A DNA stretch of 64,000 nt from Gammaproteobacteria bacterium (GCA_015488885.1 WFMW01000031.1:5566-69565), one strand, 5' to 3'. Numbered from the stretch's first letter, positions 17,131 to 49,860 are shown. Notes: generated from the letters alone by a model not told the origin. Numbers and translations are program-made.

Positions 17131-18495
17131 ATGAATTTATCTGTCATTATCCTGGCTGCGGGTGCCGGTACCCGTATGCGTTCAGCAAAACCGAAAGTGC
17201 TGCATGAAATTGCTGGCAAGCCTCTGGTTGAACATGTTTATGAACGCAGCCTCGATTTAGCAGCTGAATCTGTACATATTGTTTATGGCCATGGTGGTGA
17301 ACGGTTACGCGAGAAATGCCATCACTTCAACCGGGCAATCTGGTCAGAACAGGCACAACAACTTGGCACTGCACATGCCGTACAGCAAGCAAGTACGAAC
17401 ATAGCGGAAAACAATATTGTACTGGTATTATATGGTGATGTGCCATTAATAAAAACCCAAACCCTGAAAAAATTAGTCACTACAGTCAGCGATAATAACA
17501 TCGCTCTGTTGACGGTTAAGCTTGATAATCCTGATGGTTATGGACGTATTGTGCGTGAGGCGAAAAAAGTGGTGGCAATAGTCGAACAGAAAGATGCCAC
17601 TCACGATCAGCTGACTATCAACGAAGTCAATACCGGTATCCTGGCATTACGTGCTGGTTATTTAAATACCTGCCTGAAAAAAATTGATAATAATAATGCA
17701 CAGGGAGAATATTATTTAACCGATATCATTGCACTGGCAGTGGCCGATGGTCATGAAATTGTCACCACTGAGGCTGTAAACAGCTATGAAGTAGAAGGCG
17801 TGAACGACAGAAAACAACTGGCTCGGCTGGAACGTATTTATCAGGAAGAGCAGGCTGAACGAATTATGGCTGCGGGTGTCACCCTGGCTGATCCATCGCG
17901 CATTGATGTTCGTGGTAAGCTGGTTATTGGTGAGGACGCATTTATTGATGTTAACTGCGTATTTGAAGGTACGGTGGCAATAGGCAACAATGTTAAAATC
18001 GGGCCAGGCTGTGTGATTAGAAGCAGCACTATTGAAGCGGGTTGTATTATTAAACCCTACAGTGTTATAGACGATGCGAAAATAGCCAGTAATGTTGAGG
18101 TTGGTCCGTTTGCCCGTCTGCGTCCGGGCGCTGATTTAAAACACAATAGCCGGGTAGGCAATTTTGTGGAGATAAAAAAATCAGTATTAGGTGAAAACAG
18201 CAAGGCCAGCCATCTGACTTATCTGGGTGATACCGAGGTTGGTAGTAATGTGAATATTGGTGCGGGTACTATTACCTGTAATTATGATGGTGCGAATAAA
18301 TTTAAAACCATTATTGAAGATGGCGCCTTTATCGGTTCGGATACCCAGTTAGTCGCTCCGGTAAGAGTGGGTAAAAATGCGACCATTGGTGCCGGTTCAA
18401 CCATTACCCGCGATACCGAGGCTGATACCTTAACCCTCAGCCGCGTTAACCAGAAAACTGTTACCGGCTGGCAACGTCCGACAAAAAAAAGCTAA
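17131..18495 (+). CDS. glmU: Bifunctional UDP-N-acetylglucosamine pyrophosphorylase / glucosamine-1-phosphate N-acetyltransferase
   Basis: N-terminal LAAGAGTRM nucleotidyltransferase motif. C-terminal left-handed beta-helix hexapeptide repeats. Confidence 0.95.
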   Translation: MNLSVIILAAGAGTRMRSAKPKVLHEIAGKPLVEHVYERSLDLAAESVHIVYGHGGERLREKCHHFNRAIWSEQAQQLGTAHAVQQASTNIAENNIVLVLYGDVPLIKTQTLKKLVTTVSDNNIALLTVKLDNPDGYGRIVREAKKVVAIVEQKDATHDQLTINEVNTGILALRAGYLNTCLKKIDNNNAQGEYYLTDIIALAVADGHEIVTTEAVNSYEVEGVNDRKQLARLERIYQEEQAERIMAAGVTLADPSRIDVRGKLVIGEDAFIDVNCVFEGTVAIGNNVKIGPGCVIRSSTIEAGCIIKPYSVIDDAKIASNVEVGPFARLRPGADLKHNSRVGNFVEIKKSVLGENSKASHLTYLGDTEVGSNVNIGAGTITCNYDGANKFKTIIEDGAFIGSDTQLVAPVRVGKNATIGAGSTITRDTEADTLTLSRVNQKTVTGWQRPTKKS

Positions 18496-18789
18496 AATTT
18501 TAATATTGCGTGTACCGTTGTAAAGCATTCCCATTTTGCCAAACCTCTAAAATGTGTTATTTTTCAGCCAGAATGACAAGAATTAACAGAAAATATGGAA
18601 AAGATTGAATTATTTTATGCACCATAGTTGTGCAATAAGAGCGTAGTTAATTGATTTATATGGGTTTGATGCTTTAAACCCTGATTGCTGATTCTGCTTA
18701 TAAATTGGATAAATTATGCGTAGCTCATTAAAATTAGCCTCCTATGACAGTAGCTGTCGCAAAGCGAGGCAAAGACATTGGCAAGCGTA

Positions 18790-21700
18790 ATGAATCCAGT
18801 AGAAAAATATACATTTCCAGAACGTCGCTCAGTAGATAAACGCCAGGTTGTATTACAGAATATCTGTTTACAGCTAGCCTCGATGGGACATAAATGTCAG
18901 CTCAGTATGAAGCATGGCTATCTCACCGTTGCTGACAGCCTGTTAAAGAACTATTCAGCGCGGCGCCAGCTACTGGCAGAATATCGCAGCCCGGTCGATC
19001 AGCGCATACAGGATTTTCTGAATGATTATCTGCGGCGTAATGGTATTGAACAGGCCATAAAATTACCTGGCGAAACATTTAGTCTTAATGAGGCTGGACT
19101 GGCTCGTGAACTTTCTTTGCCCTATCAGGGTAATCATTATAAATCTGAACTGGTAGAGTCTTACCGGCTGATACAGGGAGTATTGCATAATCCGAAAAAT
19201 GATCGTCGCACCACCTCAGGCGTCTTTCATATTGTTGAGGGCGGGTTGCCAATACCGGCCGATAAAAAAGCGGTACCGGTTGATGTTTATGCCAACCTGC
19301 TTCAGGTTGCTTTAGACCCACCTACCGAATTAATGAGTCTGCCAATAACCAGTGAACTGGAAAAACCGGTAGACATGTGGGTGTCTTTGTTGTTACGTCC
19401 CATTGTACGGCCTGAAATCGAAGCAGTTCTACCGGAAAAAAGTCTGGAAGTACGAATGTTTGCTCCTGGCGGACTGGTATCGAACCTGGATTTTGCAGAA
19501 TCTATTTTTGGTAATGGTGGTGATCCCTTCCTAAGCGAAAATGATGCCGCGCTTGATATCGATCACTGGACCGGGCATAGTGGTTGCATTATTCTGGCAC
19601 CACACTTAACCCTGCTAACAAAAAAAGCGCTGGGCCTGCCTCACCATGATGATGCCAGCGAACGCCAGCGTAGCGAAGGTATGTGCTGGCAACAGGAGGA
19701 TGAACTGTATAACGATGGCCTGGCATTTAAGATTGTGTGCAGGGATATGAACGGTGTTATTGTTACCATTATTGCCGATAACTATTTTGGCTATACAAAA
19801 AAGGAAATTAAATCCCAGATCAGTTATTCAGCTAACCTGTTTGGTGGCGTTGAGGAAGAGCATGCTGGCGGTGCAATTGCCTTCCCACGTTTTAATCTGG
19901 GTATTTATTATAAGCCTAAAATTGAAGATGAGATGAGTGATCATACTTTCAAGCGTTTATGTAAACAGCTTGAAGGCGGCATAGAAATAAAACCCGAGGG
20001 TTATGCGGTTGACCGTCGCTATCCCGATATTATCTATATTCCCGAAGATGCGCATATTGATATGCAGCAACAAACGGTTAGCTGGAGACATAAAGGTGAA
20101 AAAGCCGTCATCAAACTGATGGTCAAACACACCTATATTTACCCTAGTGGTTTTAAAGTGAATATGCTGAAACACCCACAGGCACCAAGCTGGCGGCTGA
20201 TTGGTATTCTTGGTGAAGGCACACATTGCCATAAACCCAGCACAGTTTCTGGCGGGGGTAAATCAGAAATTTCAAAATCCATTCAGGATTCCATGATTTC
20301 TGGCCCGATCTATGTGGGCGATTTTGAAAAAAACCTGAATCAGGTTGAAGCCATTTTTAATTATGATTATTCGAATCGACGGCGGATAAAATCCACCAAT
20401 GACAACCGTGGAGTACTGGATAATAACCGCAGCCTGGGTTCAGTTATACGTCTGTTGACACCTTCTGCCGAAACCTATACCGATGAATATAACCAATGGC
20501 TGGAGCAAATCCCGCAACATATTCTTGCGCTGGTGTACTTAATTAAACGCTTTTACAAACCTTCATGGGGGAAAAACTGGCGCAGGTATTTTTCGGTGGA
20601 TGAAGTTAATGGCCACCCCGGGCACGAACTTAAATATTGTGGCCGTAAACTGGTAACCAGTTATCTGCGTGTTGGTATTCGCGATGACGGTACCTGGCGG
20701 ATCTATAAATTAAGGCAGGACTTTGTTGCCGCAACCAAAATTCAGACCGAGGACGACATTACTGCATCCACGGTTATTCCAGTGAACTATGTGAAGGGGA
20801 AATTAAACAACCATTACTTCAATCCCAGTGTAAAAATAGTCAAGAATTGCGAAAAACGGCTATTTCAGCGACCGGATGAAGCTATTAATCGTGGTCTGGA
20901 CACACAAACAGAACACGACCTTGCTGAAGACAATAATTTTATCTCCAACTTTGAACCCTTTACCCCTGAAGATGCCCGTGATTTAATTGATGATGCCATT
21001 AATTTTCAGAATTATTCAGCACCGATGCAGGCTTTAATTTGCCGTGCAGCGGAGAGTGACAGTGATACTTATTTTGTATCCTCTGCCCATCCCCGTATGG
21101 TAGATGGTAAACCCAGTAAGAATGTACGCTATTTACAGAAACGCCCGGATCTGGTTGACCCCAAAAGTGAATATCTGGCAAAAATAGGGGCTCGACTATC
21201 GCGGGGTCTGTCATTGAATGACCCGGTTTATTTTCCAGTTAACGCAGTGTTACAGGGACGACGTAATAACCCGGGAGATAAGGCCGCCGGGATTCGACCA
21301 CTGGCCGTTTATAATCCGATACATTATCAGGAATTGCCGGAATTATTCATGGACTTAATCTGTAGTTTAACCGGCAAGTCACCATCGACAACGGGTGCCG
21401 GCTCTGAAGGCGCTTTAACCAAAGGCCCGTTTAATGCCCTGTCTACAACTGCCGATTTAAACAATGCGCTGGTGTCATTTATTTTATGTGGTTACGATGG
21501 CTTTTCTTCAGCGGCAGGCTATATCGGTTCACGGCGCCGGGTTGACCACGATATTAGCATGTTAATTCCCGAAATATGGTGCCGTCTGCCTGTTGAACAG
21601 CGAGATCCAGCGTTTCTTATTAAACATGGGCATCTGGAAAAAATGGAAGATTTTGAACATCAGGGCAAAACGGTCTATGCCAGCCGCCTGGGTTATCGAA

Positions 21701-22248
21701 TCACCGAAAAATTTGTCCATGCTTTTTTTGGTAAGGTTTTTGATAGCCCTACCATTGTGTTTGATGAGGAAATGTTACGCCCGGAAATCCAGGATATGGA
21801 TGCTTTTATTGATGGCATTAATAATATCAGCGAGGCTCAGCAAAAAGTTGCCTGCCGTTATATCAATGATGGCTCCATCAATGATGCCTGCCCGCCATTA
21901 AAAGCACTATTATATATTATGGCAGAAGGAAACTATCAGGGAAAAACTATAGATAACCCGGCCATTCGATCCCTGTTCACGCGTGATTACCTGTTAGCCA
22001 GTGACTGGTACATAGAGCGCCTGCAGATTAAACGTCAACGTGATGCTGCGCTGTGGAAAATGAATCGTGACTATATTGAACGTAAAATGGATGAAATTAG
22101 TGAATCTGAAACGGAATTATGGGCAGATCTACAGGGCCGTATTGAAAATGCTGAACAGATGTTAGCCTGGGTAAACAGTGACAGTTATCTGGAGCGACTG
22201 CATGGTACGCTGGGTGCTGACTGGATTCATCGTGAGGATGGATTTTAA
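18790..22248 (+). CDS. Large (1,152-aa) soluble protein of unassigned family. Possibly a PPi-type PEP carboxykinase-class enzyme (hypothesis based on length and context only).
   Basis: Single uninterrupted 3.46-kb ORF, with an ATG at 18790 (the track start at 18778 is TTG). No TM segment, Walker A, Cys cluster or HExxH motif. It occupies the slot usually held by glmS. Confidence 0.6.
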   Translation: MNPVEKYTFPERRSVDKRQVVLQNICLQLASMGHKCQLSMKHGYLTVADSLLKNYSARRQLLAEYRSPVDQRIQDFLNDYLRRNGIEQAIKLPGETFSLNEAGLARELSLPYQGNHYKSELVESYRLIQGVLHNPKNDRRTTSGVFHIVEGGLPIPADKKAVPVDVYANLLQVALDPPTELMSLPITSELEKPVDMWVSLLLRPIVRPEIEAVLPEKSLEVRMFAPGGLVSNLDFAESIFGNGGDPFLSENDAALDIDHWTGHSGCIILAPHLTLLTKKALGLPHHDDASERQRSEGMCWQQEDELYNDGLAFKIVCRDMNGVIVTIIADNYFGYTKKEIKSQISYSANLFGGVEEEHAGGAIAFPRFNLGIYYKPKIEDEMSDHTFKRLCKQLEGGIEIKPEGYAVDRRYPDIIYIPEDAHIDMQQQTVSWRHKGEKAVIKLMVKHTYIYPSGFKVNMLKHPQAPSWRLIGILGEGTHCHKPSTVSGGGKSEISKSIQDSMISGPIYVGDFEKNLNQVEAIFNYDYSNRRRIKSTNDNRGVLDNNRSLGSVIRLLTPSAETYTDEYNQWLEQIPQHILALVYLIKRFYKPSWGKNWRRYFSVDEVNGHPGHELKYCGRKLVTSYLRVGIRDDGTWRIYKLRQDFVAATKIQTEDDITASTVIPVNYVKGKLNNHYFNPSVKIVKNCEKRLFQRPDEAINRGLDTQTEHDLAEDNNFISNFEPFTPEDARDLIDDAINFQNYSAPMQALICRAAESDSDTYFVSSAHPRMVDGKPSKNVRYLQKRPDLVDPKSEYLAKIGARLSRGLSLNDPVYFPVNAVLQGRRNNPGDKAAGIRPLAVYNPIHYQELPELFMDLICSLTGKSPSTTGAGSEGALTKGPFNALSTTADLNNALVSFILCGYDGFSSAAGYIGSRRRVDHDISMLIPEIWCRLPVEQRDPAFLIKHGHLEKMEDFEHQGKTVYASRLGYRITEKFVHAFFGKVFDSPTIVFDEEMLRPEIQDMDAFIDGINNISEAQQKVACRYINDGSINDACPPLKALLYIMAEGNYQGKTIDNPAIRSLFTRDYLLASDWYIERLQIKRQRDAALWKMNRDYIERKMDEISESETELWADLQGRIENAEQMLAWVNSDSYLERLHGTLGADWIHREDGF

Positions 22249-22257
22249 AATTATGAT

Positions 22258-23079
22258 ATGAGTATATTTAACTGGCTTAAGCAACAGCTGTTAAAAAAAA
22301 CATCACATCGTTATACCCTTCCAGAACCACTATGGCAGCAGGCACTGAATAAGGCAGTGTTGCTACAGACATTAACGGATGATGAGCAGTTACGCCTGTC
22401 ACATCTATGTGCACACTTTATCAGCAAAAAGAAATTTACCGGCGTTGACGGGCTGCATGTTAGCGATGAAATGAAAGTGCTGATTGCCGCCCAGGCCTGT
22501 CTATTAATACTTGAGCTGGATTTTTCTTATTTCGATGGCTGGGTGGAAGTTGTGGTTTATCCGGCGGCTTTTTATGTAGAGCATGATGTTAGAGACGCAG
22601 CAGGCGTGGTCAGCAGGCAGGTACAGTTATTAAGCGGTGAGGCATGGTCACGTGGCCAGGTGATTCTGTCATGGCAGGACGTATTACATGATACGCTTGA
22701 ACTCCATGTCGGCCATCAACTGGTATTGCACGAATTTGCTCATAAGCTGGATGCACGTTCCGGCGATACTAATGGTATGCCTCCATTGCATAAAGACATG
22801 AGCAGAGAGCAATGGGCACAGGTATTAAGCCATGCTTACAATCATCTGCTTAAACAGCTTGAGCACCATCATCACGGTTATATTAATGCCTATGCGGCAA
22901 CCAATCCGGCTGAATATTTTGCAGTGTTAACCGAATATTTCTTTACTGCCCCGGCGATTTTAAAACACCACTGTGAACATGTTTATCACCAGCTGGTAAA
23001 ATTTTACCGACAGAACCCCCAGCACAGAGCGTTACCGCATCTGGATAACACCCAGTCATCCCTGAAAAAACATCCATGA
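22258..23079 (+). CDS. mtfA: MtfA (Mlc titration factor A) / peptidase M90 family zinc aminopeptidase
   Basis: HEFAHKLD zinc motif, plus YAATNPAEYFAVLTEYFFTAP, which is near-identical to the E. coli MtfA C-terminal region. 9-bp gap after the large ORF. Confidence 0.8.
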   Translation: MSIFNWLKQQLLKKTSHRYTLPEPLWQQALNKAVLLQTLTDDEQLRLSHLCAHFISKKKFTGVDGLHVSDEMKVLIAAQACLLILELDFSYFDGWVEVVVYPAAFYVEHDVRDAAGVVSRQVQLLSGEAWSRGQVILSWQDVLHDTLELHVGHQLVLHEFAHKLDARSGDTNGMPPLHKDMSREQWAQVLSHAYNHLLKQLEHHHHGYINAYAATNPAEYFAVLTEYFFTAPAILKHHCEHVYHQLVKFYRQNPQHRALPHLDNTQSSLKKHP

Positions 23080-23089
23080 AATAGCCGGG

Positions 23090-23413
23090 TTAAGCTGCAC
23101 TACCAAATGATTTATCAATAGCACCTGCAGGTACATTCAAACCGGCAAGCTTACAACCTTGAGCCACCGGGCCACCAGGTATTATTTGATACAGGTATTT
23201 CATTCCACCCAGATGATGAAATTTTTCATCCAGTGCATCCTTAATCTGGCGCAAGTGCGGGAATTCCACTTTTTTATAATATTCCTGTAGTGCCTGGATT
23301 AAAGCAAGATGATGATCTGTTAATTCAATGCCTAGTTCAGTAGCAACGAGTTTTGCATCATCAGGACTCCAGTCTGTCGGTGCATTGGGATACGATTGCA
23401 TTTTCATATTCAT
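23090..23413 (-). CDS. TusE/DsrC-family sulfur relay protein homologue lacking the terminal (penultimate) cysteine
   Basis: ELTDHHLALIQALQEYY and KYLYQIIPGGPVAQGCKLAGL align with the DsrC/TusE helix and C-terminal arm. CysB is present. The GLPKPTGCV terminus is replaced by GLNVPAGAIDKSFGSAA. Confidence 0.75.
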   Translation of the reverse strand: MNMKMQSYPNAPTDWSPDDAKLVATELGIELTDHHLALIQALQEYYKKVEFPHLRQIKDALDEKFHHLGGMKYLYQIIPGGPVAQGCKLAGLNVPAGAIDKSFGSAA

Positions 23414-23630
23414 CTTTGATTACTCCTCTCATTAATAAACAAAGTTTGTAAGAAAAAATATTATTGATTCATGCCTCTTACTAAGGTTGTGATATGCTCT
23501 GTATATATTAGTTCCCCTGATAGCATTAAATTCAATAGGCCATAGAAAACATATACCACAAGATATTGATTTTTATACCAGAAGCCTGTCCGAGATGCAT
23601 TGGCGTTGTAAGCAAGGGTTATATAAATTT

Positions 23631-23717: not shown

Positions 23718-25205
23718 ATGACAAATAACAGCAGGGGCAATAAAAGTAGAAAAAACCCGGCTTTACACTGGCGAAGAACAAAAATACTAGCCACTCTGGG
23801 CCCCGCATCTGATACAGATAAAATGATTCATGCATTAATACAGGCAGGAGTTAATGTGTTTCGCCTGAATATGTCGCATGGTGACCATGCTTCCCATCAG
23901 CAGTTATTTATGCGTATCCGAGAACTTGCCAGACAACAGAATGCACAGGTTGCCATACTGGTAGATCTGTGTGGGCCTAAAATACGTGTGGGTCGATTTG
24001 TACACGGTGAGCTTACATTAAAACAACATTCATCTGTTGTTATTCGCTGTAGTAACCGCCCCGGTGAGAATAATATTATTCCATCACAGTATAAAAATTT
24101 ATATAAAGATGTGAAACCGGATGAGCGCATTCTGCTTGATGACGGTAATATTGAATTAAAGGTGGTAGCAGTAAAAGATAAAGATGTGATATGCAGGGTT
24201 ATTTATGGTGGGCAGTTAAAAGACCATAAAGGCATAAACCTGCCCGATTCCAGAGTCTCTGTTTCCAGTTTTACCCCTGGGGATAAACGTGATGCGAAGC
24301 TGGCGATAAAACTGGGTGCCGACTTTGTTGCATTAAGTTTTGTGCGGACTGAAAAAGATGTGCTGACATTAAAAAATTATATGAAACGTAATGGTGCCAG
24401 CATTCCAGTTATCGCAAAAATTGAAAAACCTGAAGCCGTTGACAATATCGAGGCAATCATAAAAGTTTCCTACGGTATTATGATTGCTCGTGGTGATCTG
24501 GGTATTGAATTACCAGCAGAAAAAGTTCCACTAATACAGAATAAATTAATTGCGCTAGCACGTATCCGGCATCGTCCGGTAATTGTCGCCACTCAGATGA
24601 TGGAGTCGATGATAAGTCATGCCCGACCGACACGGGCAGAAGTCAATGATGTCGCTAATGCGGCACTATCGGGGGCAGATGCAGTGATGTTGTCGGCAGA
24701 AACCGCCGTGGGGAAATACCCTGTCAGGACAGTAAAAACCATGGATACTATATTGCGTGAAGTTGAAATTAACCAATGGTTAAATAATCGGTTTGAAGAC
24801 GATGTAAAAGATAATCTTAGTTATGAAAAGCAGACAGCAAGCCAGCCCTCCACACGAAAAGCGATTGCTCATGCTGCCTGTATGTTAGCTGATGAACTAA
24901 AGCTGGAGGGAATTCTAGTGCCAACCAGATCCGGGATGACGGCGAATATTATTTCATCTGTTCGCCCATTAGCACCTTTGCTTGGCCTGTCATCAAGCCT
25001 GCAAACCTGTCGAAAACTGGCCTTGCACTGGGGTGTCGTACCACTTAGTATTAATGAAGTTGAGGCAAGAGACTGGCAGATTATGGTGAATACGGTATGT
25101 AAACAGTGTAAGCTGGCAAAAGCTGGCAGCCAGGTTTTACTGGTATCAGGTATTAATGATGACCCGGTTAAAAACAGGCCGGTATTAAAGATTATGACGG
25201 TATAA
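23718..25205 (+). CDS. pyk: Pyruvate kinase (PykA-like)
   Basis: RRTKILATLGPAS, NMSHG, MIARGDLGIE and MLSAETAVGKYP motifs. 495 aa. Confidence 0.9.
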   Translation: MTNNSRGNKSRKNPALHWRRTKILATLGPASDTDKMIHALIQAGVNVFRLNMSHGDHASHQQLFMRIRELARQQNAQVAILVDLCGPKIRVGRFVHGELTLKQHSSVVIRCSNRPGENNIIPSQYKNLYKDVKPDERILLDDGNIELKVVAVKDKDVICRVIYGGQLKDHKGINLPDSRVSVSSFTPGDKRDAKLAIKLGADFVALSFVRTEKDVLTLKNYMKRNGASIPVIAKIEKPEAVDNIEAIIKVSYGIMIARGDLGIELPAEKVPLIQNKLIALARIRHRPVIVATQMMESMISHARPTRAEVNDVANAALSGADAVMLSAETAVGKYPVRTVKTMDTILREVEINQWLNNRFEDDVKDNLSYEKQTASQPSTRKAIAHAACMLADELKLEGILVPTRSGMTANIISSVRPLAPLLGLSSSLQTCRKLALHWGVVPLSINEVEARDWQIMVNTVCKQCKLAKAGSQVLLVSGINDDPVKNRPVLKIMTV

Positions 25206-25837
25206 TGATGCATTCACAACGACAGTTAAGCCGAATATTTTTCCTGTGTGGCAGATGGTTTGCTATCACTTTATTTTCTGGCGTATTCTTCTCTATCACC
25301 TTGTTTTCCATTCGTGGTTTTGCAAACACGGTAAAAATACATAAAAACCCCGCCACGGGATTATTAACCTGGGCGGTTGAAGATAAGGGCTTCAGCCTTG
25401 AGCTTATTCAGCTTAACCCCGACTTTGTCCGCGCTGTTTATGAAAAACATGGCCTACCACAGGCAGAGGTTGAACGCATTGCGGGTTATTGTGTTTTTGG
25501 CTCTATCTTAAGAAATACCTCAGCAAAATATACCATGTATTATCGGGTGGCAAACTGGCGTTATCGAACTAAAAAGGGCAATGAATATCCGGTGAAAACG
25601 AAAACCCAGTGGTTGCACGAATGGAAAAAAGTCGGCGTGCCGTTTTCATGGACATTACTACCCGATGCGGGTGATTTTAATGTCGGGGACTGGCAACAGG
25701 GGTTTACTACGATAAAATTACCCAGAAATACGCGGTTTGATTTTATCTATAAATGGCAGATGGACGGTAAGCATTATCGCGGTACTATAAAAAACATGCG
25801 CTGCGCACCAGCGCGGCTGATGGGGGATAAAAAATAA
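25205..25837 (+). CDS. Hypothetical exported or membrane-anchored protein (Trp-rich, 210 aa)
   Basis: N-terminal hydrophobic segment. The start overlaps the pyk stop (TAATG), and its own stop overlaps the next start (ATGA). Confidence 0.45.
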   Translation: MMHSQRQLSRIFFLCGRWFAITLFSGVFFSITLFSIRGFANTVKIHKNPATGLLTWAVEDKGFSLELIQLNPDFVRAVYEKHGLPQAEVERIAGYCVFGSILRNTSAKYTMYYRVANWRYRTKKGNEYPVKTKTQWLHEWKKVGVPFSWTLLPDAGDFNVGDWQQGFTTIKLPRNTRFDFIYKWQMDGKHYRGTIKNMRCAPARLMGDKK

Positions 25838-26385
25838 TGATAAAACAGTGGGTAAAATTGAAAAGCCTGGCAACGACGGCTCTTATTTTGACTAGTTTTT
25901 CCTTACATGCCAGCTGGTTGCAGCCACCTTTAAGCCATACGCTGACAGCGGTTAAAACACCCTTTATGGCAAAAGATTTTTCGCTACCAGATGTAGATGA
26001 AGAAATGGTTAAGTTTTCTGCTTACCGGGGAAAAGTTATTTTAATCAATTTCTGGGCGACCTGGTGCCCACCCTGTGTGCGTGAAATGCCTTCAATGGAA
26101 CGTTTATACCGGCAATTAAAAAAAGATAAGTTTGTGGTAATAGCGATTGATCAGATGGAAGATGAGGATCAGGTATTTGCTTTTACCGGCCAGCTATCTA
26201 TTGAGCCAACCTTTACCCTGTTGCTGGATAAAAACAGTAAAGTAGCAAACAGTTACGGGGTCAAAGGTTTACCCACAACCTTTATTATTGATAAAAAAGG
26301 CAGGGTACGTTACCGGGCCATTGGCGGGCGCGAACTTGACCATGCTCAGATAAAAAAAATCATTAAGCAGTTAATTGCAGAATAA
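25837..26385 (+). CDS. TlpA/ResA-like periplasmic thiol:disulfide oxidoreductase
   Basis: Signal peptide. WATWCPPC thioredoxin-fold CxxC motif. 182 aa. Confidence 0.8.
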   Translation: MIKQWVKLKSLATTALILTSFSLHASWLQPPLSHTLTAVKTPFMAKDFSLPDVDEEMVKFSAYRGKVILINFWATWCPPCVREMPSMERLYRQLKKDKFVVIAIDQMEDEDQVFAFTGQLSIEPTFTLLLDKNSKVANSYGVKGLPTTFIIDKKGRVRYRAIGGRELDHAQIKKIIKQLIAE

Positions 26386-29125: not shown

Positions 29126-31729
29126 TCAATATTCCAGTAACTCACGAACTCGGGTAAGTAGCCTCTGTGATGTGTAAGGTTTGTCGATGATGTGTTTTTG
29201 CAAAGTCTTATCAGCCGTCGGGTTATGGCGTTCATCAGCAAAACCGCTGACCAGCTGAATGCGTATCTGTGGATAAATGCGTTTAACTTCTGCGGCGAGT
29301 TGATAGCCATCCATTTGAGGCATAATAAGGTCAGTAATAATCAGGTCTACTTTTTCCTTTTCGAGAAGCTGCAATGCCTGTAAGCCATTATGAGCAGTAA
29401 AAACCCGATAACCATATTCGGTCAGAATATTGGCAGTGAGTGAAACAATCGCCTGCTCATCATCTACAACCAGTATGCTTTCTGTTCCATGCAGATCCTT
29501 TCCCAGGCCATCGATGTCATCTTCTGCCTTACTGATGGTTTGCTGGCTGCGTGGGAAATACAGGGCAAATTGTGTGCCCTGCCCCGGTTCAGAAAAAACC
29601 TGTATCTGCCCACCGCTACGCTGGATAAAACCATAAACCTGGCTTAAACCCAGACCCGAACCACGCTTACCTTTGGTGGTATAAAAAGGGTCAAAAATTT
29701 GTTCACGGGTTTTTTCATCCATCCCACAGCCGGTATCGGTAATGGTGAGCAGAACATAATCTCCCGGGTTCATATTATATTGCCTGGTATCTGCCACAGT
29801 AAGCGGCCGGTTGCAAGTGTGAATGGTAAGCTGTCCGTTACCTTCCATCGCATGCATGGCATTAATACATAAATTGAGAATGGCATCTTCAAAATCACTG
29901 TCATCAATACAAACGGCCCATAATTGTGGCGCAAGATTAAAATTTAGTTTAATCCTTGCAGTCAGTGTTTTTTCGAGAACCTGCTGTTGCTCCTGTATCA
30001 GCGTATTAAGATTGAACAGAGCTACCTGACCACCTTCCTGCCGGGTAAAAGACAGTAGTTTACGGGTTAGTTTTCCACCACGTTGGGCAGCGTGGTAAAT
30101 CTGGTGTGCATAACGGGCAAGGATGGGCTGATCGTCGAGTTGCCTTTCCAGTAATTCAGCGTAACCCAGAACAATACCAAGCATATTATTGTAATCATGG
30201 GCAACGCCACCGGTGAGCTGGCCAAGAGCTTCCATTTTCTGGCTGCGACGCAAGGTTTCTTCCTGTTTTTTTCGTTCGGTAATGTCGGTGGCAATACAGC
30301 AGATGGCATAAATTTTATTATTAACATCCAGCAGTGGAAATTTAACAGAAAGAAAATCATGTAATTGATTATGGATTGCTATCTGCTCTTCCCTTTCCAG
30401 GGTATCACCACCAGTCAGTATCTGCTGTTCAAGCTGAGCCTGTTTTTGCGCAAAATCTGCCGGGAAAATATCAAAATCTGTTTTGCCGGGAAGGTCATCC
30501 TGTTGCTGAAATAACTGCTTGAAGGTCTGGTTGGCAAAAAGATAGTGGCCCTGAGTATCCTTGGCATAAATAACCGCAGGGGAATGATCCATAATAGCCT
30601 GTAAGTTACGCTTGCTGCGAGCGGTTGATTCGCGTAGCTGATATTGTTCAGTGACATTATTAAACACCAGCACCATACCAAGAATATCGCCATTTCGATC
30701 CCGGATGGGTGACGCGGAGTCAGCAATCTGGTATTCGGTTTTATCCCGGGCAATCAGGGTGGTATGGTTACTGAGGTAAATAACTTCACCTGTGGCCAGA
30801 ACCTTATCCACCGGGTTATCGATGGGCAGTCGAGTACTGGCATCAATGATGCTAAAAATAGACTTTAATGGCTGGTCTCGGGTTTCCTCGGTTTGCCAGC
30901 CGGTTAACTGTTCAGCAACGCTATTCATGTACAGCAGGTTACCGTTCCTGTCGGTTACAATGACGGCATCAGCAATCGACTCCAGCGTTACCTGATGAAA
31001 TTCCTTTTCCTTAAACAACTGATTATAACTACCCGACAGACGCTGCATCAGATCGCTGAAATTGCGTGCCAGCAGGCCGACTTCATCACTGCGCTCGAGT
31101 AATTGCGGGGAAAGCACAGGAAGATAATCCTCGGTCTGCCGCATAACCGATGCCAGTTTTTCAATCGGTGTCAGCGCACGGCGAAGGATAATGGCGGTGG
31201 CAATAGAGAGCAATATTAGAGTAATGAGCAAGCTGGCCATTAAACGCAGGGTTATAGGTGTGGAATAAATGATGGAAGAGTCGAGATAATAGGCAAGATG
31301 AGCATTGGCTACATGCCTGTTACCCAGATAGGCAGGGTAAACCACTTCCCGAACCGGGCGGCCACGGTAGTTGGCATTTCGTAGTAGCGGTTTTTTCAAC
31401 TTACCCAGCGGGATCGTTCTGGTCGCTACCGCAGCGGGGTTGGTATCAGCAATAATCAACCCGTTGCTACGATTTATATAGGCATAAGCAAAACCATCAT
31501 CCAGAACCGACACCTGTAGGAGCCGATCCAGCTGCTCATAATCTTTTGCTGCCAGTGCGTCGAGGCTGCTTTCAGCCAGATTTCTGGTGAGTGTCCGTGC
31601 CTGCTGTAAACGGAATGCTGCGGCTGTATTTTGTGCATCATCAATCAGTAAAAAAGCCATCACACTGGCGCTGATAATAAATAGCAATAATAGACTAAAC
31701 AGTATCCGGTAAAAAAGTGCCGATTTCAT
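29126..31729 (-). CDS. Hybrid sensor histidine kinase / response regulator (TM-periplasmic sensor-TM-HAMP-2xPAS-HisKA-HATPase-REC)
   Basis: H-box GGVAHDYNNML. G-boxes DTGCGMD and GSGLGLS. C-terminal REC with VVDDE...DLIITDLIMP. Confidence 0.9.
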   Translation of the reverse strand: MKSALFYRILFSLLLLFIISASVMAFLLIDDAQNTAAAFRLQQARTLTRNLAESSLDALAAKDYEQLDRLLQVSVLDDGFAYAYINRSNGLIIADTNPAAVATRTIPLGKLKKPLLRNANYRGRPVREVVYPAYLGNRHVANAHLAYYLDSSIIYSTPITLRLMASLLITLILLSIATAIILRRALTPIEKLASVMRQTEDYLPVLSPQLLERSDEVGLLARNFSDLMQRLSGSYNQLFKEKEFHQVTLESIADAVIVTDRNGNLLYMNSVAEQLTGWQTEETRDQPLKSIFSIIDASTRLPIDNPVDKVLATGEVIYLSNHTTLIARDKTEYQIADSASPIRDRNGDILGMVLVFNNVTEQYQLRESTARSKRNLQAIMDHSPAVIYAKDTQGHYLFANQTFKQLFQQQDDLPGKTDFDIFPADFAQKQAQLEQQILTGGDTLEREEQIAIHNQLHDFLSVKFPLLDVNNKIYAICCIATDITERKKQEETLRRSQKMEALGQLTGGVAHDYNNMLGIVLGYAELLERQLDDQPILARYAHQIYHAAQRGGKLTRKLLSFTRQEGGQVALFNLNTLIQEQQQVLEKTLTARIKLNFNLAPQLWAVCIDDSDFEDAILNLCINAMHAMEGNGQLTIHTCNRPLTVADTRQYNMNPGDYVLLTITDTGCGMDEKTREQIFDPFYTTKGKRGSGLGLSQVYGFIQRSGGQIQVFSEPGQGTQFALYFPRSQQTISKAEDDIDGLGKDLHGTESILVVDDEQAIVSLTANILTEYGYRVFTAHNGLQALQLLEKEKVDLIITDLIMPQMDGYQLAAEVKRIYPQIRIQLVSGFADERHNPTADKTLQKHIIDKPYTSQRLLTRVRELLEY

Positions 31730-31744
31730 GACTATATGTTTGGT

Positions 31745-32641
31745 CTATAATTGCCCGGTGGCAATCAGTTTTTTAATTATGCTATTCATTTTTTTACTAT
31801 CATAGCGTACAAATGACTGAATTTTCATACTATGCATGTTAGCAAGTACCTGCCTGCCCGTCGGATTTTTCTCCATGATAAGCAACTGGTGCCGAAACTG
31901 TTTAATCTGCTGTGGCGGCAAATTGAGGCGTGCTGCAATAAGACTTTCAGGGTATTCAGGGCTATTACCAATGATTTTTAAATCGCCGGTTTTAATCTTC
32001 TGACTCATTAACTTGAAATTAACCCCGCACATGGTACCGGCATCATAGTCACCGAGTAATACGCCATGAATGGAATTAGTCAGGTTTCGGGTAAATTCAG
32101 GCTTAAAATCTCGATCGCTTTTCAACCCGGCAGCATACAGGTAGGCGCGTGGTGCCATATACCCACCTGCGCCCAGAGGGCTGACAAAAGCGATGGATTT
32201 TCCGTTCAGATCGCCAATGCTCTGTATATGACTGTTTTTGCGTACAAAGATTTCACTGTGGCTGGTAGTGTTACCCGCTATATTTCTTATTTGTGCAACG
32301 GCAAGTGCCTGATGCGTCTGTAACAGACGGTAAAACACGTATGAATTAATATAAAAAAAATCAACCTTACCCTGTAAAATGGCCTGCTTCATTTTGCTAA
32401 AACCATGGGGAACAACCAGCTCAACCGGTCGGCCAAGCTGTTTCTGCATATAATCAGCAAATGGTTGCCATTTGGCATACAGGCGTGCAGGTGGTGCGAT
32501 GGATAATATGCCTAAGTGAATCACCTCAGGTTTTGCGGCCAGACTCGGTGGCAAGCTCAGGTAGCAGAAAAATAAAATCACCAGGCGGGGCAGTGCGGGA
32601 AAGTTTAAAACCTTACCTCGATGGTTAAATAAATGCATCAT
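31745..32641 (-). CDS. PhnD/SsuA-like periplasmic substrate-binding protein, likely the sensing partner of the downstream hybrid kinase
   Basis: Signal peptide. Phosphonate-binding-protein-like fold motifs (GILSIAPPARLY, FFYINSYVFYRL). 15-bp gap to the kinase gene. Confidence 0.7.
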   Translation of the reverse strand: MMHLFNHRGKVLNFPALPRLVILFFCYLSLPPSLAAKPEVIHLGILSIAPPARLYAKWQPFADYMQKQLGRPVELVVPHGFSKMKQAILQGKVDFFYINSYVFYRLLQTHQALAVAQIRNIAGNTTSHSEIFVRKNSHIQSIGDLNGKSIAFVSPLGAGGYMAPRAYLYAAGLKSDRDFKPEFTRNLTNSIHGVLLGDYDAGTMCGVNFKLMSQKIKTGDLKIIGNSPEYPESLIAARLNLPPQQIKQFRHQLLIMEKNPTGRQVLANMHSMKIQSFVRYDSKKMNSIIKKLIATGQL

Positions 32642-32736
32642 TTATTAACTACCTCTGATAGTGACTATTGAGAAGATAATAATAGTTCCAACTCAGTATG
32701 GGATACAGTGTTCAGGCAGGTAGATCTGTCGTACCT

Positions 32737-33651
32737 TCACACATATTTCATTTCTTTCTTACGGTACAGGGTTGAAACCGAGCCGACTATTTTAGGGTCG
32801 GGCTTGCAAGCAATTATCGGGTCTTTTTCCGGGTAGTCCATGCTGTATAAAAAATGGCGTATACAGTTGATGCGGGCACGTTTTTTATCATCGGATTTTA
32901 CGACAGTCCAGGGGGCATCAGCCGTATCAGTATGAAAAAACATGGTCTTGCGGGCATCGGTATAATCATCCCACTTATCCAGCGACTGCAGGTCAATCGG
33001 GCTGAGTTTCCAGTGTTTTAGCGGGTCGTGACTGCGGGAATGGAAACGGCGTATCTGCTCATGGCGGCTCACTGAGAACCAGTATTTGCGTAATACCAGA
33101 TTAGAGTTGACCAGCATTCTTTCCAGTTGTGGGGTGGTACGCAGAAATTCCAGATGCTCTTCAGGGGTGCAGAATCCCATCACTCTTTCAACGCCAGCAC
33201 GGTTGTACCAGGAGCGGTCAAAAAACACCATTTCACCACGTGTGGGCAGGTGGTGTATATAACGTTGAAAATACCATTGCCCCAGTTCCCGGTTATTGGG
33301 TTTTTCCAGCGCAATAATGTGTGCGGCACGAGGGTTAAGGTGTTCCATAAAACGTTTAATCGTACCACCTTTGCCGGCCGCATCACGACCTTCAAAAATG
33401 CCAACTATCTTTATACCCTGTTCTTTAACCCAGTTCTGCAATTTCAGTAGTTCAGTCTGTAGCAACTGTTTTTCATGTTCGTATTCTTTCGTACCAATCT
33501 TTTTCGGGTAGGGATAATTACCCAGTTCGTAATTGATCTTTAATAAATCTTTACCGGAGATAATATCAGGTGAAGACAGAACTTTTTCAGGGTGAGTCAG
33601 ATCTTCAAGTATCTGTTTCATTTCCTGTTTGTGCTTATCACTATGTGGCAT
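32737..33651 (-). CDS. ppk2: Polyphosphate kinase 2 (single-domain PPK2)
   Basis: Walker A FEGRDAAGKGG and Walker B MVFFDRSWY. Lid motif. 304 aa. Confidence 0.9.
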   Translation of the reverse strand: MPHSDKHKQEMKQILEDLTHPEKVLSSPDIISGKDLLKINYELGNYPYPKKIGTKEYEHEKQLLQTELLKLQNWVKEQGIKIVGIFEGRDAAGKGGTIKRFMEHLNPRAAHIIALEKPNNRELGQWYFQRYIHHLPTRGEMVFFDRSWYNRAGVERVMGFCTPEEHLEFLRTTPQLERMLVNSNLVLRKYWFSVSRHEQIRRFHSRSHDPLKHWKLSPIDLQSLDKWDDYTDARKTMFFHTDTADAPWTVVKSDDKKRARINCIRHFLYSMDYPEKDPIIACKPDPKIVGSVSTLYRKKEMKYV

Positions 33652-33736
33652 AGGTTTCCGTGTATTATTTTGTAAGTTAAAGTAGTATAGTCAAAAAGAA
33701 AAAATAATTAATCATCCCTGAAAAAGCTTATCCAGT

Positions 33737-35242
33737 CTATTCAAATTTAAGGTGGTAACCCGCTTTAGCCAGGTAATCTATTTCCTTGTTTAAATCTGCA
33801 AGCGTCAGGCTATTGGCAGCCAGCCAGCCAACGGGGAACAACAGCTGAATCTGTTTCTTATTAACGCTAATCTCCGGGTCAGGCGTACTGTTATCGGTAC
33901 GCCCACGGTGCATTAAAACGGCCAGACGCAATAAAATGCACAGGCGTTTTCCCGGTTTAACAAACGGTTGCATGAGTGGGTTAAACTCATCACTATGAAA
34001 TTTGGCGCGATGGTTCTGTACCACGATCGCCAGCAGCGCCTGTTCCTGACGGGAAAAACCCTGCATATCCGCATTACCAAGAATATAGGCGCCATGTCGA
34101 TGGTATTGTGAGTGAGAGACCAACAGGCCGATTTCATGCAGTTGAGCCGCCCATTTGATGACTTGTTCAAAGGGTTCATCATCAATTTTCCATGCTTCAC
34201 TGGTCTGCTGGTAAAGCTTTTCAACAGTGTTGGCAACCCGTACCGACTGCTTTTCATCCACCCCCCAGCGTTTAATAAGTGATTCGACGGTGGCATCACG
34301 TACGTCCTGATGATTGATCCGACCGACCAGATCATAGAGCAGACCCTCACGCATACTTTGGTCAGAAACCTGCATGTGCTCAATGTTCAGGGTATTAAAT
34401 ACAGCCATTAATACAGATACCCCCCCGGCAATAACCGGACGGCGGCTTTCAGACAGACCTTTCAGCTCAAGCTTATCTTCATGCCCGGCTTTAATGAGGG
34501 CTTTTTGTAGTGGATGCAGAGCGTCGCGTTCAATACCGTTTTTACACCAGCCCTCGGCGTGTAATATATTACGAATCGCTCGAATAGTACCGGAACAGCC
34601 TATCGCTTCATTCCAGTTACCAGCCTGAAATTTTCCTGCCTGAGGTAGCAGGGTGAGTGCTGCATCAATTTGTGCCGCCTGAATGCGCGCTTTAGTAATC
34701 TGACCACCTGAAAAAAATTTTTTACTGGCACTGACACAACCGGTGTAAAGACTTTCACGGTGTAACGGATGCATGCCCTCACCGATAATGCACTCAGTGC
34801 TGCCTCCGCCAATATCAATCACCAGGCGTCTGCCCTGACCGGTAGCCAGGCCATGTGCCACACCCAGATATATCAGCCGTGCCTCTTCTCGTCCAGCAAT
34901 GATTTCAACAGGATGTTGCAGAATTTTTTCAGCCTGACAAACAAACTCAGCGGCGTTACGTGCTACCCGTAAGGTATTGGTTCCAGCAATTCGTACCGCA
35001 GAATCGGGTAAATCACGCACCCGTTGCGAGAAGGTTTCCAGGCAGGCAAAAGCCCGTTGCTGTGCAGCCGGTTTTAATTTACCTTTTTTACTCAGACCAC
35101 CACCAAGGCGAACACTTTCACGTATGCGGTCAATAATAGATAGAGTACCGCTTTCTTCCAGCCGGGCAACAATCATATGAAAGCTATTAGAACCAAGGTC
35201 AATGGCCGCAACAATATCAGGATGAGGGTCGGATATTTTCAA
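33737..35242 (-). CDS. ppx: Exopolyphosphatase / guanosine pentaphosphate phosphohydrolase
   Basis: Ppx/GppA N-terminal actin-like ATPase motifs (AAIDLGSNSFHMIV, DIGGGSTE). 501 aa. Confidence 0.9.
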   Translation of the reverse strand: MKISDPHPDIVAAIDLGSNSFHMIVARLEESGTLSIIDRIRESVRLGGGLSKKGKLKPAAQQRAFACLETFSQRVRDLPDSAVRIAGTNTLRVARNAAEFVCQAEKILQHPVEIIAGREEARLIYLGVAHGLATGQGRRLVIDIGGGSTECIIGEGMHPLHRESLYTGCVSASKKFFSGGQITKARIQAAQIDAALTLLPQAGKFQAGNWNEAIGCSGTIRAIRNILHAEGWCKNGIERDALHPLQKALIKAGHEDKLELKGLSESRRPVIAGGVSVLMAVFNTLNIEHMQVSDQSMREGLLYDLVGRINHQDVRDATVESLIKRWGVDEKQSVRVANTVEKLYQQTSEAWKIDDEPFEQVIKWAAQLHEIGLLVSHSQYHRHGAYILGNADMQGFSRQEQALLAIVVQNHRAKFHSDEFNPLMQPFVKPGKRLCILLRLAVLMHRGRTDNSTPDPEISVNKKQIQLLFPVGWLAANSLTLADLNKEIDYLAKAGYHLKFE

Positions 35243-36827: not shown

Positions 36828-37259
36828 CTATTTTTGAGGTGGAGGCATTTCTTCAAATGCAGGAACACTTTTATCCATAAAATCCCATTTGGGTTTTCTT
36901 TTATTGTAAACAATGGCATTCGGTTTAAACCAGGAGCTATCATCAAGTGTTCCAGCAGAAACACTGATAGCATCCACAACCACATTACTTGTTCCAAAAA
37001 GACGGCTGCCACAACTGGGGCAAAAATATCTTGTAATTTTTGATCCTGTATCTGTTGTTGATTCAAAAGAACTGACTTCACCTTCGATTTTTACATCATC
37101 TCTATTGAAGAATGCATTAGAAGAATGGCCAGTTCCCGTGCTTTTCCTACAGTCATCACAATGACACTGCCCCATTCTCACTGGTTGAGATGTGATTGTA
37201 TACCTTACTGCTCCACATAAGCACGACCCTGAAGCAAAGGGTTTATTTTCTAAGTCCAC
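36828..37259 (-). CDS. GFA (glutathione-dependent formaldehyde-activating / CENP-V) family zinc protein
   Basis: CLCGAV...CHCDDC...CPSCGSRLF Zn-binding Cys pattern. The start is taken at a GTG preceded by GGAG; the ORF track's upstream ATG at 37343 is an alternative. Confidence 0.7.
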   Translation of the reverse strand: MDLENKPFASGSCLCGAVRYTITSQPVRMGQCHCDDCRKSTGTGHSSNAFFNRDDVKIEGEVSSFESTTDTGSKITRYFCPSCGSRLFGTSNVVVDAISVSAGTLDDSSWFKPNAIVYNKRKPKWDFMDKSVPAFEEMPPPQK

Positions 37260-37372
37260 TATATTCTCCAAAAAACGTGATTTCCGATTCAGACCTAACG
37301 CAGTTTTTAGCGGCAAAAAATGGTTTGCTATAATGCACAGCAAACTCTTTTTTGTCCACTTGAAAACACTTG

Positions 37373-39321: not shown

Positions 39322-39852
39322 ATGCTGAGTCGTATAATCGATAAACTGGAAAAATTTATCGACTGGAGCGGACGCACGGTGTCCTGGTTAACACTGGCAC
39401 TGGTGCTGGATACTTTTCTGGTGGTGGTATTGCGTTATGTTTTTGACAGCGGCTCCATCGCCATGCAGGAATCCATTACCTATATCCATGCTACGGTATT
39501 TCTTGTCGGCATGGCCTATACGCTGCAACTGGATGGCCATGTGCGCGTGGATATTTTTTACACACACTTTTCTGCCCGGGGCAAGGCCTGGGTCGATCTG
39601 TTCGGTGCCTGCTGTTTTCTGTTGCCGTTTATGCTGTTTATCAGCTGGATTAGCTGGGAATATATTGCCGCGAGCTGGTCGGTACATGAAGGCTCACGCG
39701 AAGCCGGTGGTCTGCCCGGTGTCTTCCTGCTAAAAAGCATGATTCTGGTGATGACCACGCTGTTGACCCTGCAAGCACTGGTGCAGATTTATCATGCCAT
39801 TCAAACCATCAGACAGCCTGAAGCGAATACCCTGCCCGAGGATAAAAAATAA
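39322..39852 (+). CDS. dctQ: TRAP transporter small permease
   Basis: Four-TM DctQ profile. Starts 3 bp after the thrB stop. Confidence 0.85.
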   Translation: MLSRIIDKLEKFIDWSGRTVSWLTLALVLDTFLVVVLRYVFDSGSIAMQESITYIHATVFLVGMAYTLQLDGHVRVDIFYTHFSARGKAWVDLFGACCFLLPFMLFISWISWEYIAASWSVHEGSREAGGLPGVFLLKSMILVMTTLLTLQALVQIYHAIQTIRQPEANTLPEDKK

Positions 39853-41225
39853 TGGAATATATGCCATTGTATATGTTCGCTGCGGTGTTCGCATTTCTGC
39901 TGCTGGGCTATCCGGTTGCCTTTACACTGGCCGGGACCGCTTTACTGTTCAGTGTCATCGGGCAGCTCACCGGCAGTTTCGACCCGGCTTTTCTGCAGGC
40001 CCTGCCTAATCGTATTTATGGCATTATCAGCAATGAAATATTAATTGCTGTACCCCTGTTTGTGTTTATGGGAGTGATGCTGGAACGCTCTAAAATTGCC
40101 GATGCGCTGCTTACCACCATGGCACGTTTGTTCGGTCGTTTGCGCGGTGGCCTCGGCATTTCAGTGGTACTGGTGGGGATGTTACTGGCTGCCAGTACCG
40201 GCATAGTCGGTGCCACCGTGGTTACCATGGGGCTGTTATCACTGCCCAGTATGCTCAAACAGGGCTATGACCCGAAAATATCCGCTGGTTTGATATGTGC
40301 ATCAGGTACATTAGGGCAGATTATCCCGCCTTCTATCGTACTGGTTTTACTGGGTGATGTACTGTCTACCGCCTATCAGCAGGCACAGCTCAATATGGGC
40401 ATTTATTCACCACAAACCGTATCGGTTGGCGACCTGTTTATTGGCGCACTGCTTCCCGGCATATTGCTGGTGAGTCTGTATATTCTCTATCTTGTTGGCG
40501 TTGCCATAGTTAAACCTGCCGCTATGCCACTGGCAAAACAGGATGATAACAGCACCACTGCCAATCTGTTAGAAGACGTGATCCGCAGCCTGATTCCACC
40601 ACTGGTGCTTATCTTTGCGGTATTGGGTTCCATTATTGCCGGTCTGGCGACACCCACCGAGGCAGCTTCACTGGGTGCAGTCGGCGCCATGCTGCTGGCG
40701 GCGGTAAAAAAACAACTGACCCTGGCCAACCTTACTGACGTCATGCGCAGTACCACCCGTATCAGCAGTATGGTGTTTATGATTCTGATTGGCGCAGCGA
40801 TTTTTTCACTGGTATTTCGCGGTTTTGATGGTGACGGCTTAATCCAGTCCATGCTCAGCAACCTCAGCGGTGGTAAATATCACGCGCTGTTTCTGGTTAT
40901 GCTGGTTATGTTCCTGCTGGGTTTCGTGCTTGATTTTATTGAAATTACCTTTGTTATCGTTCCCATTGTCGGCCCGGTTTTACTTACCATGGGTATCGAC
41001 CCGGTATGGCTGGGGATTCTGATTGCCATTAACCTGCAAACCTCATTTTTGACCCCACCTTTTGGTTTCGCACTGTTTTATCTGCGCGGTGTCGCCCCGG
41101 CAGAAGTCACCACCATGCAAATTTATAAAGGTGTCATGCCTTTTATATTGATTCAGGTTATCGCTATGGCTTTAATTGCCTGGTGGCCGCAAATTGCCAC
41201 CTGGCTACCCACAAAGATTTCCTGA
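39852..41225 (+). CDS. dctM: TRAP transporter large permease
   Basis: 12-TM DctM family. ATGA overlap with dctQ. Confidence 0.9.
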   Translation: MEYMPLYMFAAVFAFLLLGYPVAFTLAGTALLFSVIGQLTGSFDPAFLQALPNRIYGIISNEILIAVPLFVFMGVMLERSKIADALLTTMARLFGRLRGGLGISVVLVGMLLAASTGIVGATVVTMGLLSLPSMLKQGYDPKISAGLICASGTLGQIIPPSIVLVLLGDVLSTAYQQAQLNMGIYSPQTVSVGDLFIGALLPGILLVSLYILYLVGVAIVKPAAMPLAKQDDNSTTANLLEDVIRSLIPPLVLIFAVLGSIIAGLATPTEAASLGAVGAMLLAAVKKQLTLANLTDVMRSTTRISSMVFMILIGAAIFSLVFRGFDGDGLIQSMLSNLSGGKYHALFLVMLVMFLLGFVLDFIEITFVIVPIVGPVLLTMGIDPVWLGILIAINLQTSFLTPPFGFALFYLRGVAPAEVTTMQIYKGVMPFILIQVIAMALIAWWPQIATWLPTKIS

Positions 41226-49795: not shown

Positions 49796-49860
49796 CCTTT
49801 TTCTTTTTGATTAAAAAAACAACCGACTATTCAGTAAGGGTTAATGCTCATCATTTCAGG

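Follow-up and report, generated by a model that had tools for sequence, protein, structure and literature searches.

A large protein encoded after atp-glmU in an uncultured gammaproteobacterial lineage is assigned to the pyrophosphate-dependent phosphoenolpyruvate carboxykinases

Pyrophosphate (PPi)-dependent phosphoenolpyruvate carboxykinases (PPi-PEPCKs; EC 4.1.1.38, KEGG K20370, Pfam PF26300) have no sequence kinship with PEPCKs that depend on ATP or GTP (EC 4.1.1.49 and 4.1.1.32) and occur in a limited but diverse set of bacteria and in protists (PMC8100219). Both kinds of enzyme carry out the same chemistry between oxaloacetate and phosphoenolpyruvate (PEP) and, according to a passage of PMC10441589 that cites Chiba et al. 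(2019), their overall folds are related; however, PPi-PEPCKs are about twice as long and use PPi rather than a nucleotide as the phosphoryl donor. Structures have been solved for the enzymes of Actinomyces israelii (AiPEPCK; Protein Data Bank [PDB] entry 6K31; Chiba et al., 2019) and Propionibacterium freudenreichii (PEP carboxytransphosphorylase; 8E1U), and the Propionibacterium enzyme is reported to be inhibited by malate, sulfate, and PPi (PMC8100219). PPi-PEPCK is also accepted in the central metabolism of Methylococcales, where it is placed alongside PPi-dependent phosphofructokinase and pyruvate kinase (PMC6860931, PMC10602362). Here we analyze a 64,000-nucleotide stretch of DNA, the window, from an uncultured gammaproteobacterium (GCA_015488885.1, WFMW01000031.1:5566-69565), in which a large open reading frame (ORF) downstream of glmU is closely followed by a gene for a zinc metallopeptidase of the M90 family. 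A preliminary description, made from the sequence alone, had called the large protein unassigned, had guessed from length and context that it might be a PPi-PEPCK, and had otherwise proposed that the two genes form an undescribed module. As judged by homology, the large ORF encodes a PPi-PEPCK, a further member of a known enzyme family, and the peptidase gene is a recent, lineage-specific insertion next to it.

Using phmmer to compare the large protein with all PDB chains, we obtained two matches, both with E=0. AiPEPCK (6k31_A) aligned with residues 59-1143 of the query at 1160 bits, and the P. freudenreichii enzyme (8e1u_A, labeled 'PPi-dependent PEPCK') aligned with residues 15-1143 at 1136 bits, covering residues 4-1126 of the chain. 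Identity to 6K31 was 54% across the 871 aligned positions compared, and the blocks VSGGGKSEISKS and TGKSPSTTGAGSEGALTK were identical. The differences from AiPEPCK are that it is actinobacterial, while the window gene comes from an uncultured gammaproteobacterium; that the first ~58 residues of the window protein lie outside the alignment; and that there are small insertions or deletions at positions 375-382, 406-414, and 668-671. With 1152 or 1156 residues, depending on the start codon, the protein fits the PPi-PEPCK class of about 1,130-1,160 residues, in which the two solved chains have 1153 (A. israelii) and 1131 (P. freudenreichii). No Pfam family of the ATP- or GTP-dependent PEPCKs matched it at E<=0.01.

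Residue-level evidence agrees with this assignment. In a 2026 genome survey, a passage citing Chiba et al. (2019) describes how PPi-PEPCK genes were verified through residues K335, K336, H356, D659, and D660 of 6K31 (PMC13147460). In the phmmer alignment, all five are conserved in the large protein, as K337, K338, H358, D655, and D656. These residues are invariant among the 11 members of an alignment of the window protein's clade, which has a mean column identity of 87% and long invariant blocks around the active-site motifs. A database protein that is 100% identical to the large protein (P0001, called from a TTG start and 1156 residues long) carries the precomputed annotation PF26300 (PEPCK_PPi_lobe_2), as do all 120 relatives among the matches listed. 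Names given to some relatives are 'phosphoenolpyruvate carboxykinase (diphosphate)', by JGI, and 'PPi-type phosphoenolpyruvate carboxykinase', by UniRef. Thus, the earlier guess of a PPi-PEPCK was borne out, and the label 'unassigned' no longer applies.

The preliminary description had also stressed the motifs that the large protein lacks. A motif scan of the protein detected no strict Walker A, HExxH, or CxxC motif, and its highest 19-residue hydropathy was 1.51, with no hydrophobic segment that would resemble a transmembrane helix. That account needs one correction: a P-loop-like GGGKS is present at residues 488-492, within a stretch (the first of the two blocks given above) that is identical in both solved PPi-PEPCKs.

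We then considered the peptidase. The second ORF contains a Peptidase_M90 domain (PF06167, residues 13-251), and among PDB chains its product matches 9srw_E, labeled 'Mlc titration factor A', and also 3dl1_A, with E-values near 1e-44. The catalytic HExxH is preserved as HEFAH at residue 158, and the Glu motif downstream of it as NPAEYF at residue 216. The protein resembles the MtfA proteins of E. coli and Klebsiella (9srw_E, 3DL1/3KHI) in its domain, in these motifs, and in a C-terminal PAE.FAVL.EYFF.AP pattern. The earlier statement that it is near-identical to E. coli MtfA was nevertheless too strong, as only the motifs are close (HEFAHKLD versus HEVAHKLD, and NPAEYFAVLTEYFFTAP versus DPAECFAVLSEYFFSAP), while overall identity to 9srw_E is 37%. 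Since its score against the NCBIfam MtfA equivalog NF011939, 190.9 bits, is under the 400-bit cut-off, we call the gene an M90-family peptidase rather than mtfA. In E. coli, MtfA binds the glucose repressor Mlc, a member of the ROK family, and inactivates it. Among the window ORFs scanned, including those near the M90 gene, we saw no genes for Mlc/ROK proteins or the phosphotransferase system (PTS).

To learn how widely the peptidase accompanies PPi-PEPCK, we examined adjacency from the PEPCK side, using flanks of up to about 6-8 kb in relatives, and from the M90 side. In 82 non-redundant loci the flanks of the PEPCK gene contained no M90 gene; these include two sister lineages (L085 and L087) whose PEPCKs are 85% and 83% identical to that of the window. 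In tblastn searches with the window M90 protein, no match was found in loci L002-L084 even at E<=10; a match was found in L001, a near-identical contig of ENA sample ERZ27262636. Among the loci examined, an M90 gene follows the PEPCK gene only in the window and L001, in L086, and in L090. The three carriers form one clade in a neighbor-joining tree of PEPCK proteins, and their M90 proteins are orthologous, at 71% identity compared with 84% for PEPCK. The gap between the two genes is 9 nucleotides in the window (TAA-aattatgat-ATG) versus 130 and 180 nucleotides in L086 and L090. The next-closest M90 homologues, at 54-56% identity, are located in an accA-tilS-M90-rdgC arrangement or beside a gene for pyruvate:ferredoxin oxidoreductase. 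In a repeat search of positions 18400-23500, the only matches were short, in two copies, and probably due to chance, and the M90 gene was not flanked by insertion scars.

These distributions indicate that the M90 gene is a lineage-specific insertion and not a conserved partner of PEPCK, and the simplest history would be a single insertion between the PEPCK gene and the DsrC-like gene beyond it (Table 1). The 9-nucleotide spacing given in the preliminary description was confirmed, as was the peptidase, although not its MtfA name. A terminator scan detected nothing between the PEPCK and M90 genes or after the M90 gene; in this region, counts of promoter- and terminator-like sites were not above those in shuffled sequence. 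Because the gap is so short and no terminator-like site separates the genes, M90 is probably co-transcribed with PEPCK in the window species, and is perhaps translationally coupled to it.

The two ORFs lie where the preliminary description had placed them, and ORF and domain annotation confirmed the order that it gave for the genes 5' of PEPCK: rsmG, parA, parB, the atp genes, and glmU. Pyruvate kinase, which it had put 1.5 kb downstream, begins 1.47 kb past the PEPCK stop codon. The intergenic region following glmU, described as a 282-bp AT-rich gap, is AT-rich (33.7% GC versus 44.8% across the window), but the length of 282 nucleotides holds only to a TTG codon at 18778; to the quoted ATG at 18790, it is 294 nucleotides. 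A scan of the whole window with Rfam at gathering thresholds identified 0 RNA families and hence no known riboswitch or leader in the 282-nucleotide gap.

In relatives with >=72% PEPCK identity, the atp-glmU genes are also upstream of PEPCK wherever the contig extends that far, and the convergent DsrC-like gene and pyruvate kinase are downstream in relatives with >=79% PEPCK identity. The PEPCK gene had been said to replace glmS. As a description of gene order this is accurate, but nothing speaks for functional replacement, and a search of all frames of the window revealed no glmS-type MCGI.G N terminus. Since the order of PEPCK after glmU is, by these comparisons, lineage-wide in this uncultured gammaproteobacterial clade, it is not a local replacement. 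Orthologues in methanotrophs of the same bacterial class (Methylotuvimicrobium alcaliphilum WP_014148666, and Methylobacter, Methylomicrobium, and Methyloglobulus among loci L020-L064) are 62-66% identical, but their gene neighborhoods differ: atp-glmU is missing upstream, and downstream there is neither a DsrC-like gene nor one for pyruvate kinase or an M90 peptidase. When we clustered all ORFs within 3.5 kb of PEPCK at 85 loci, no neighbor was conserved family-wide.

Table 1. Features of the PPi-PEPCK locus and of a downstream phosphate/polyphosphate cluster in the window
Feature	Coordinates	Strand	Basis and remarks
glmU, end of atp-glmU block	17131..18495	+	ORF; Pfam NTP_transferase and Hexapep on near-identical contig L001
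Dyad TGCACCATAGTTGTGCA, probable regulator-binding site	18618..18634	.	Conserved island; about 90 nucleotides upstream of promoter
Predicted sigma-70-type promoter of PEPCK	18705..18734	+	-35 TTGGAT (18705-18710), 18-nucleotide spacer, -10 TAAAAT (18729-18734); consensus scan and conservation
Shine-Dalgarno GAGG	18766..18769	+	8 nucleotides before TTG 18778; conserved in upstream alignment
PPi-dependent PEP carboxykinase gene (EC 4.1.1.38)	18778..22248	+	1156 residues from TTG 18778, 1152 from ATG 18790; ORF call and homology
M90-family zinc metallopeptidase (MtfA-like)	22258..23079	+	273 residues; Pfam Peptidase_M90 E=8.7e-84; PDB matches
DsrC/TusE-family small protein, convergent with PEPCK-M90 pair	23090..23413	-	Pfam DsrC 2.3e-18; TIGR03342 62.9 bits (cut-off 53.5)
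Pyruvate kinase	23718..25205	+	Pfam PK and PK_C; TIGR01064 505 bits
PAS hybrid histidine kinase	29126-31729	-	
Phosphonate-type periplasmic binding protein	31745-32641	-	
PPK2	32737-33651	-	
Ppx/GppA	33737-35242	-	

We aligned nine PEPCK upstream regions, which have a mean column identity of 54%. Amid otherwise diverged sequence, two islands were conserved: a predicted promoter and a dyad. The promoter elements TTGGAT-N18-TAAAAT occur at an unchanged distance in 17 loci (two of which are duplicate contigs), with PEPCK identity >=74% in all, which points to a sigma-70-type promoter belonging to the PEPCK gene itself. The dyad is probably a regulator-binding site. Of the 16 non-redundant loci, 9 have an exact copy of its core, GCAC-N7-GTGC, at -172 to -183, compared with a background frequency of 0.027 per kb; the core has a single exact occurrence in the window, where other matches to the dyad motif were at chance level. 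One mismatch separates the dyad from the NtrC consensus as published, TGCACCAnnnTGGTGCA (PMC8743547). A sigma-54 promoter was rejected, as a scan of the + strand from the dyad to the start gave no match to TGGCAC-N5-TTGC with two or fewer mismatches. Nor did a properly spaced -24/-12 element turn up beyond the dyad: the sole GG...GC pair there is spaced by 9 nucleotides and lacks conservation across the aligned regions. The conserved promoter and dyad provide a testable handle on PEPCK regulation, a modest by-product of the analysis.

The upstream alignment also bears on where translation begins. Because a conserved GAGG precedes a conserved TTG or GTG start codon by 8 nucleotides, the true start of the PEPCK gene is probably TTG 18778 and not ATG 18790. 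No exact-sequence record of the ATG-start protein was found among database contigs, where the gene starts at the TTG. Gene callers disagree among relatives, giving N termini of the form MNS..., MAxVMNS..., or M..KEA....

In the mechanism that we propose, the gene would be transcribed from its own promoter after glmU, with the upstream dyad serving as an operator, and would most likely be translated from the TTG. The enzyme would interconvert PEP + CO2 + inorganic phosphate (Pi) and oxaloacetate + PPi, so that PPi-PEPCK and pyruvate kinase would be the two enzymes that draw PEP away at the PEP-pyruvate-oxaloacetate node. Net flux would be mainly carboxylating, resulting in anaplerotic synthesis of oxaloacetate with the phosphoryl energy saved as PPi. 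We favor this anaplerotic, PPi-conserving role, at about an even chance, because the Gibbs energy lies slightly on the side of carboxylation and because the pairing with pyruvate kinase is conserved. For carboxylation, the standard transformed reaction Gibbs energy is -6.7 +/- 6.1 kJ/mol (Table 1 of PMC13147460).

We are highly confident in the overall explanation, that of a PPi-PEPCK with its own promoter and dyad and with M90 as a lineage-specific passenger. Several observations nonetheless weigh against parts of it. Local Pfam-A and NCBIfam scans assigned the large protein to 0 families, presumably because the copies scanned were without a model for the PPi-PEPCK family; as the precomputed Pfam annotation is PF26300, we did not count the empty result as novelty. 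A 2020 review noted that no InterPro family for PPi-PEPCK existed at that date (PMC8100219). At the level of the fold, an AlphaFold2 model of the large protein, built with an alignment of 11 close relatives only, was uninformative, with a mean predicted local distance difference test score (pLDDT) of 37 and a predicted template modeling score (pTM) of 0.25. PPi/Pi-dependent catalysis by members of the clade is deduced from sequence. The silence of the curated local hidden Markov model libraries would also fit a diverged PPi-PEPCK paralogue that acts on another substrate or has lost catalytic activity. Such a paralogue is exceedingly improbable given identity to characterized enzymes over nearly the full length, retention of all five check residues, strong conservation across the clade with invariant active-site blocks, and one conserved chromosomal position of the gene across the relatives sampled. 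The direction of flux is a closer matter. The enzyme could be mainly gluconeogenic, converting oxaloacetate + PPi to PEP + CO2 + Pi with PPi as a cheap phosphoryl donor, while pyruvate kinase serves the opposite flux. In extracts of M. alcaliphilum, conversion of malate to PEP was ascribed to malate dehydrogenase and PPi-PEPCK (PMC6860931), and the Gibbs energy quoted above places the reaction close to equilibrium (PMC13147460). However, the same value is slightly on the side of carboxylation, and in the conserved pairing of the PEPCK gene with that of pyruvate kinase, two enzymes that consume PEP stand together. The classical Propionibacterium PPi-PEPCK, moreover, fixes CO2 into oxaloacetate. 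We regard a mainly gluconeogenic enzyme as a serious, if somewhat doubtful, alternative.

The peptidase raises a different question, since its 9-nucleotide junction with PEPCK and its retention in three related lineages, which also count against the passenger interpretation, leave some room for a local functional link. One explanation is that PEPCK and M90 form a functional two-gene module in the subclade, in which the peptidase would process or titrate either PEPCK itself or some regulator acting on the PEP node, much as MtfA acts on Mlc. The genes are on the same strand with no terminator-like site between them; three species-level lineages of one clade have retained M90 in this position, and it evolves as an orthologue; and its catalytic motifs are intact. 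Yet sister lineages are among the 82 loci without M90 beside PEPCK, the wider spacing in the other two carriers makes the tight junction particular to the window species, and the closest M90 homologues outside the clade lie in unrelated contexts. The sub-threshold MtfA score and the failure to see Mlc/ROK or PTS genes in the window also argue against a role modeled on MtfA. The undescribed module of the preliminary description, which was to be given up if the adjacency proved not to be conserved, is therefore refuted in general, and as a local feature it is unlikely; we consider the subclade version very unlikely. A related idea, also by analogy to MtfA and Mlc, is that M90 regulates the PEP node post-translationally, with the dyad possibly adding nitrogen control of PEPCK despite the sigma-70-type promoter. 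We think this improbable; if true, either M90 regulation or nitrogen control would connect a little-studied enzyme to regulation in a new way. A PPi-PEPCK with a passenger peptidase thus remains our preferred reading.

The family to which the large protein belongs is large and is already recognized in gammaproteobacterial methanotrophs. In a protein database search, more than 8000 proteins matched the large protein at E<=1e-10; among representatives clustered at 50% identity, the matches numbered 2385 at E<=1e-3, of which 677 reached E<=1e-30. Relatives occur in at least 574 species-representative genomes, spanning Gamma-, Beta-, and Zetaproteobacteria, Bacteroidota, Verrucomicrobiota, Omnitrophota, and other groups. 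The top species-representative matches, at 80% identity, were metagenome-assembled genomes labeled 'Gammaproteobacteria' and 'Thiotrichaceae'. Among the matches listed (P0001-P0120), most relatives are unnamed or called 'hypothetical protein', and few bear the correct PPi-PEPCK name.

The main value of the analysis is therefore in annotation, as the protein can be assigned with confidence to PPi-PEPCK despite its many unnamed relatives. The locus represents no new kind of system, and the assignment settles no open question. It would mean that an abundant clade of uncultured Gammaproteobacteria from marine and vent settings has an anaplerotic or gluconeogenic step that conserves PPi, which is relevant for models of their carbon and pyrophosphate economy.

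Several features of the surrounding genes are worth recording. In four related loci (L003, L085, L086, and L087), a gene for a Sel1-repeat protein of about 275-280 residues lies between glmU and PEPCK; the window is without it. All four loci, like the window, nevertheless retain a promoter region of roughly 280-320 nucleotides ahead of PEPCK.

DsrC and TusE use a C-terminal Cys. The DsrC-like gene of the window is conserved, and convergent with PEPCK, in nine loci (the window, L002, L003, L005-L008, L085, and L086), in all of which the protein ends in ...AG.(N/K/E).P.G..DKSFGS.A. One Cys is kept (C87 in the window), and none is near the C terminus, so that the protein looks non-canonical from its sequence. 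A more distant copy, in L015, ends in ...PKGCS.

Downstream, pyruvate kinase is followed by an ORF of 210 residues (25205-25837) and by a gene for a TlpA/Redoxin-like protein (25837-26385), with a one-base overlap at each junction. The 210-residue protein has a hydrophobic N terminus and matches no Pfam family. This trio recurs in relatives and is an odd pairing of a cytosolic, glycolytic enzyme with apparently membrane or periplasmic proteins.

A phosphate/polyphosphate cluster is present 9-13 kb downstream of PEPCK, on the - strand at 29126-35242 (Table 1); we mention it as context and not as evidence for the role of the enzyme. A Ppx/GppA gene is also found within 8 kb of PPi-PEPCK in L002, L003, and L087.

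Elsewhere, the window contains a homologue of glutathione-dependent formaldehyde-activating enzyme (GFA), together with methionine-salvage-like genes (IF-2B family and class II aldolase) that adjoin the gene for the tripartite ATP-independent periplasmic (TRAP) transporter component DctP; DctQ and DctM are encoded elsewhere in the window. Together, these genes account for the regions 36828-37343, 48096-50934, and 39322-41225. The remainder of the window consists of housekeeping genes, including ubiE, a ubiB-like ABC1 gene, uvrD, hslVU, an xerC-like gene, and dapF.

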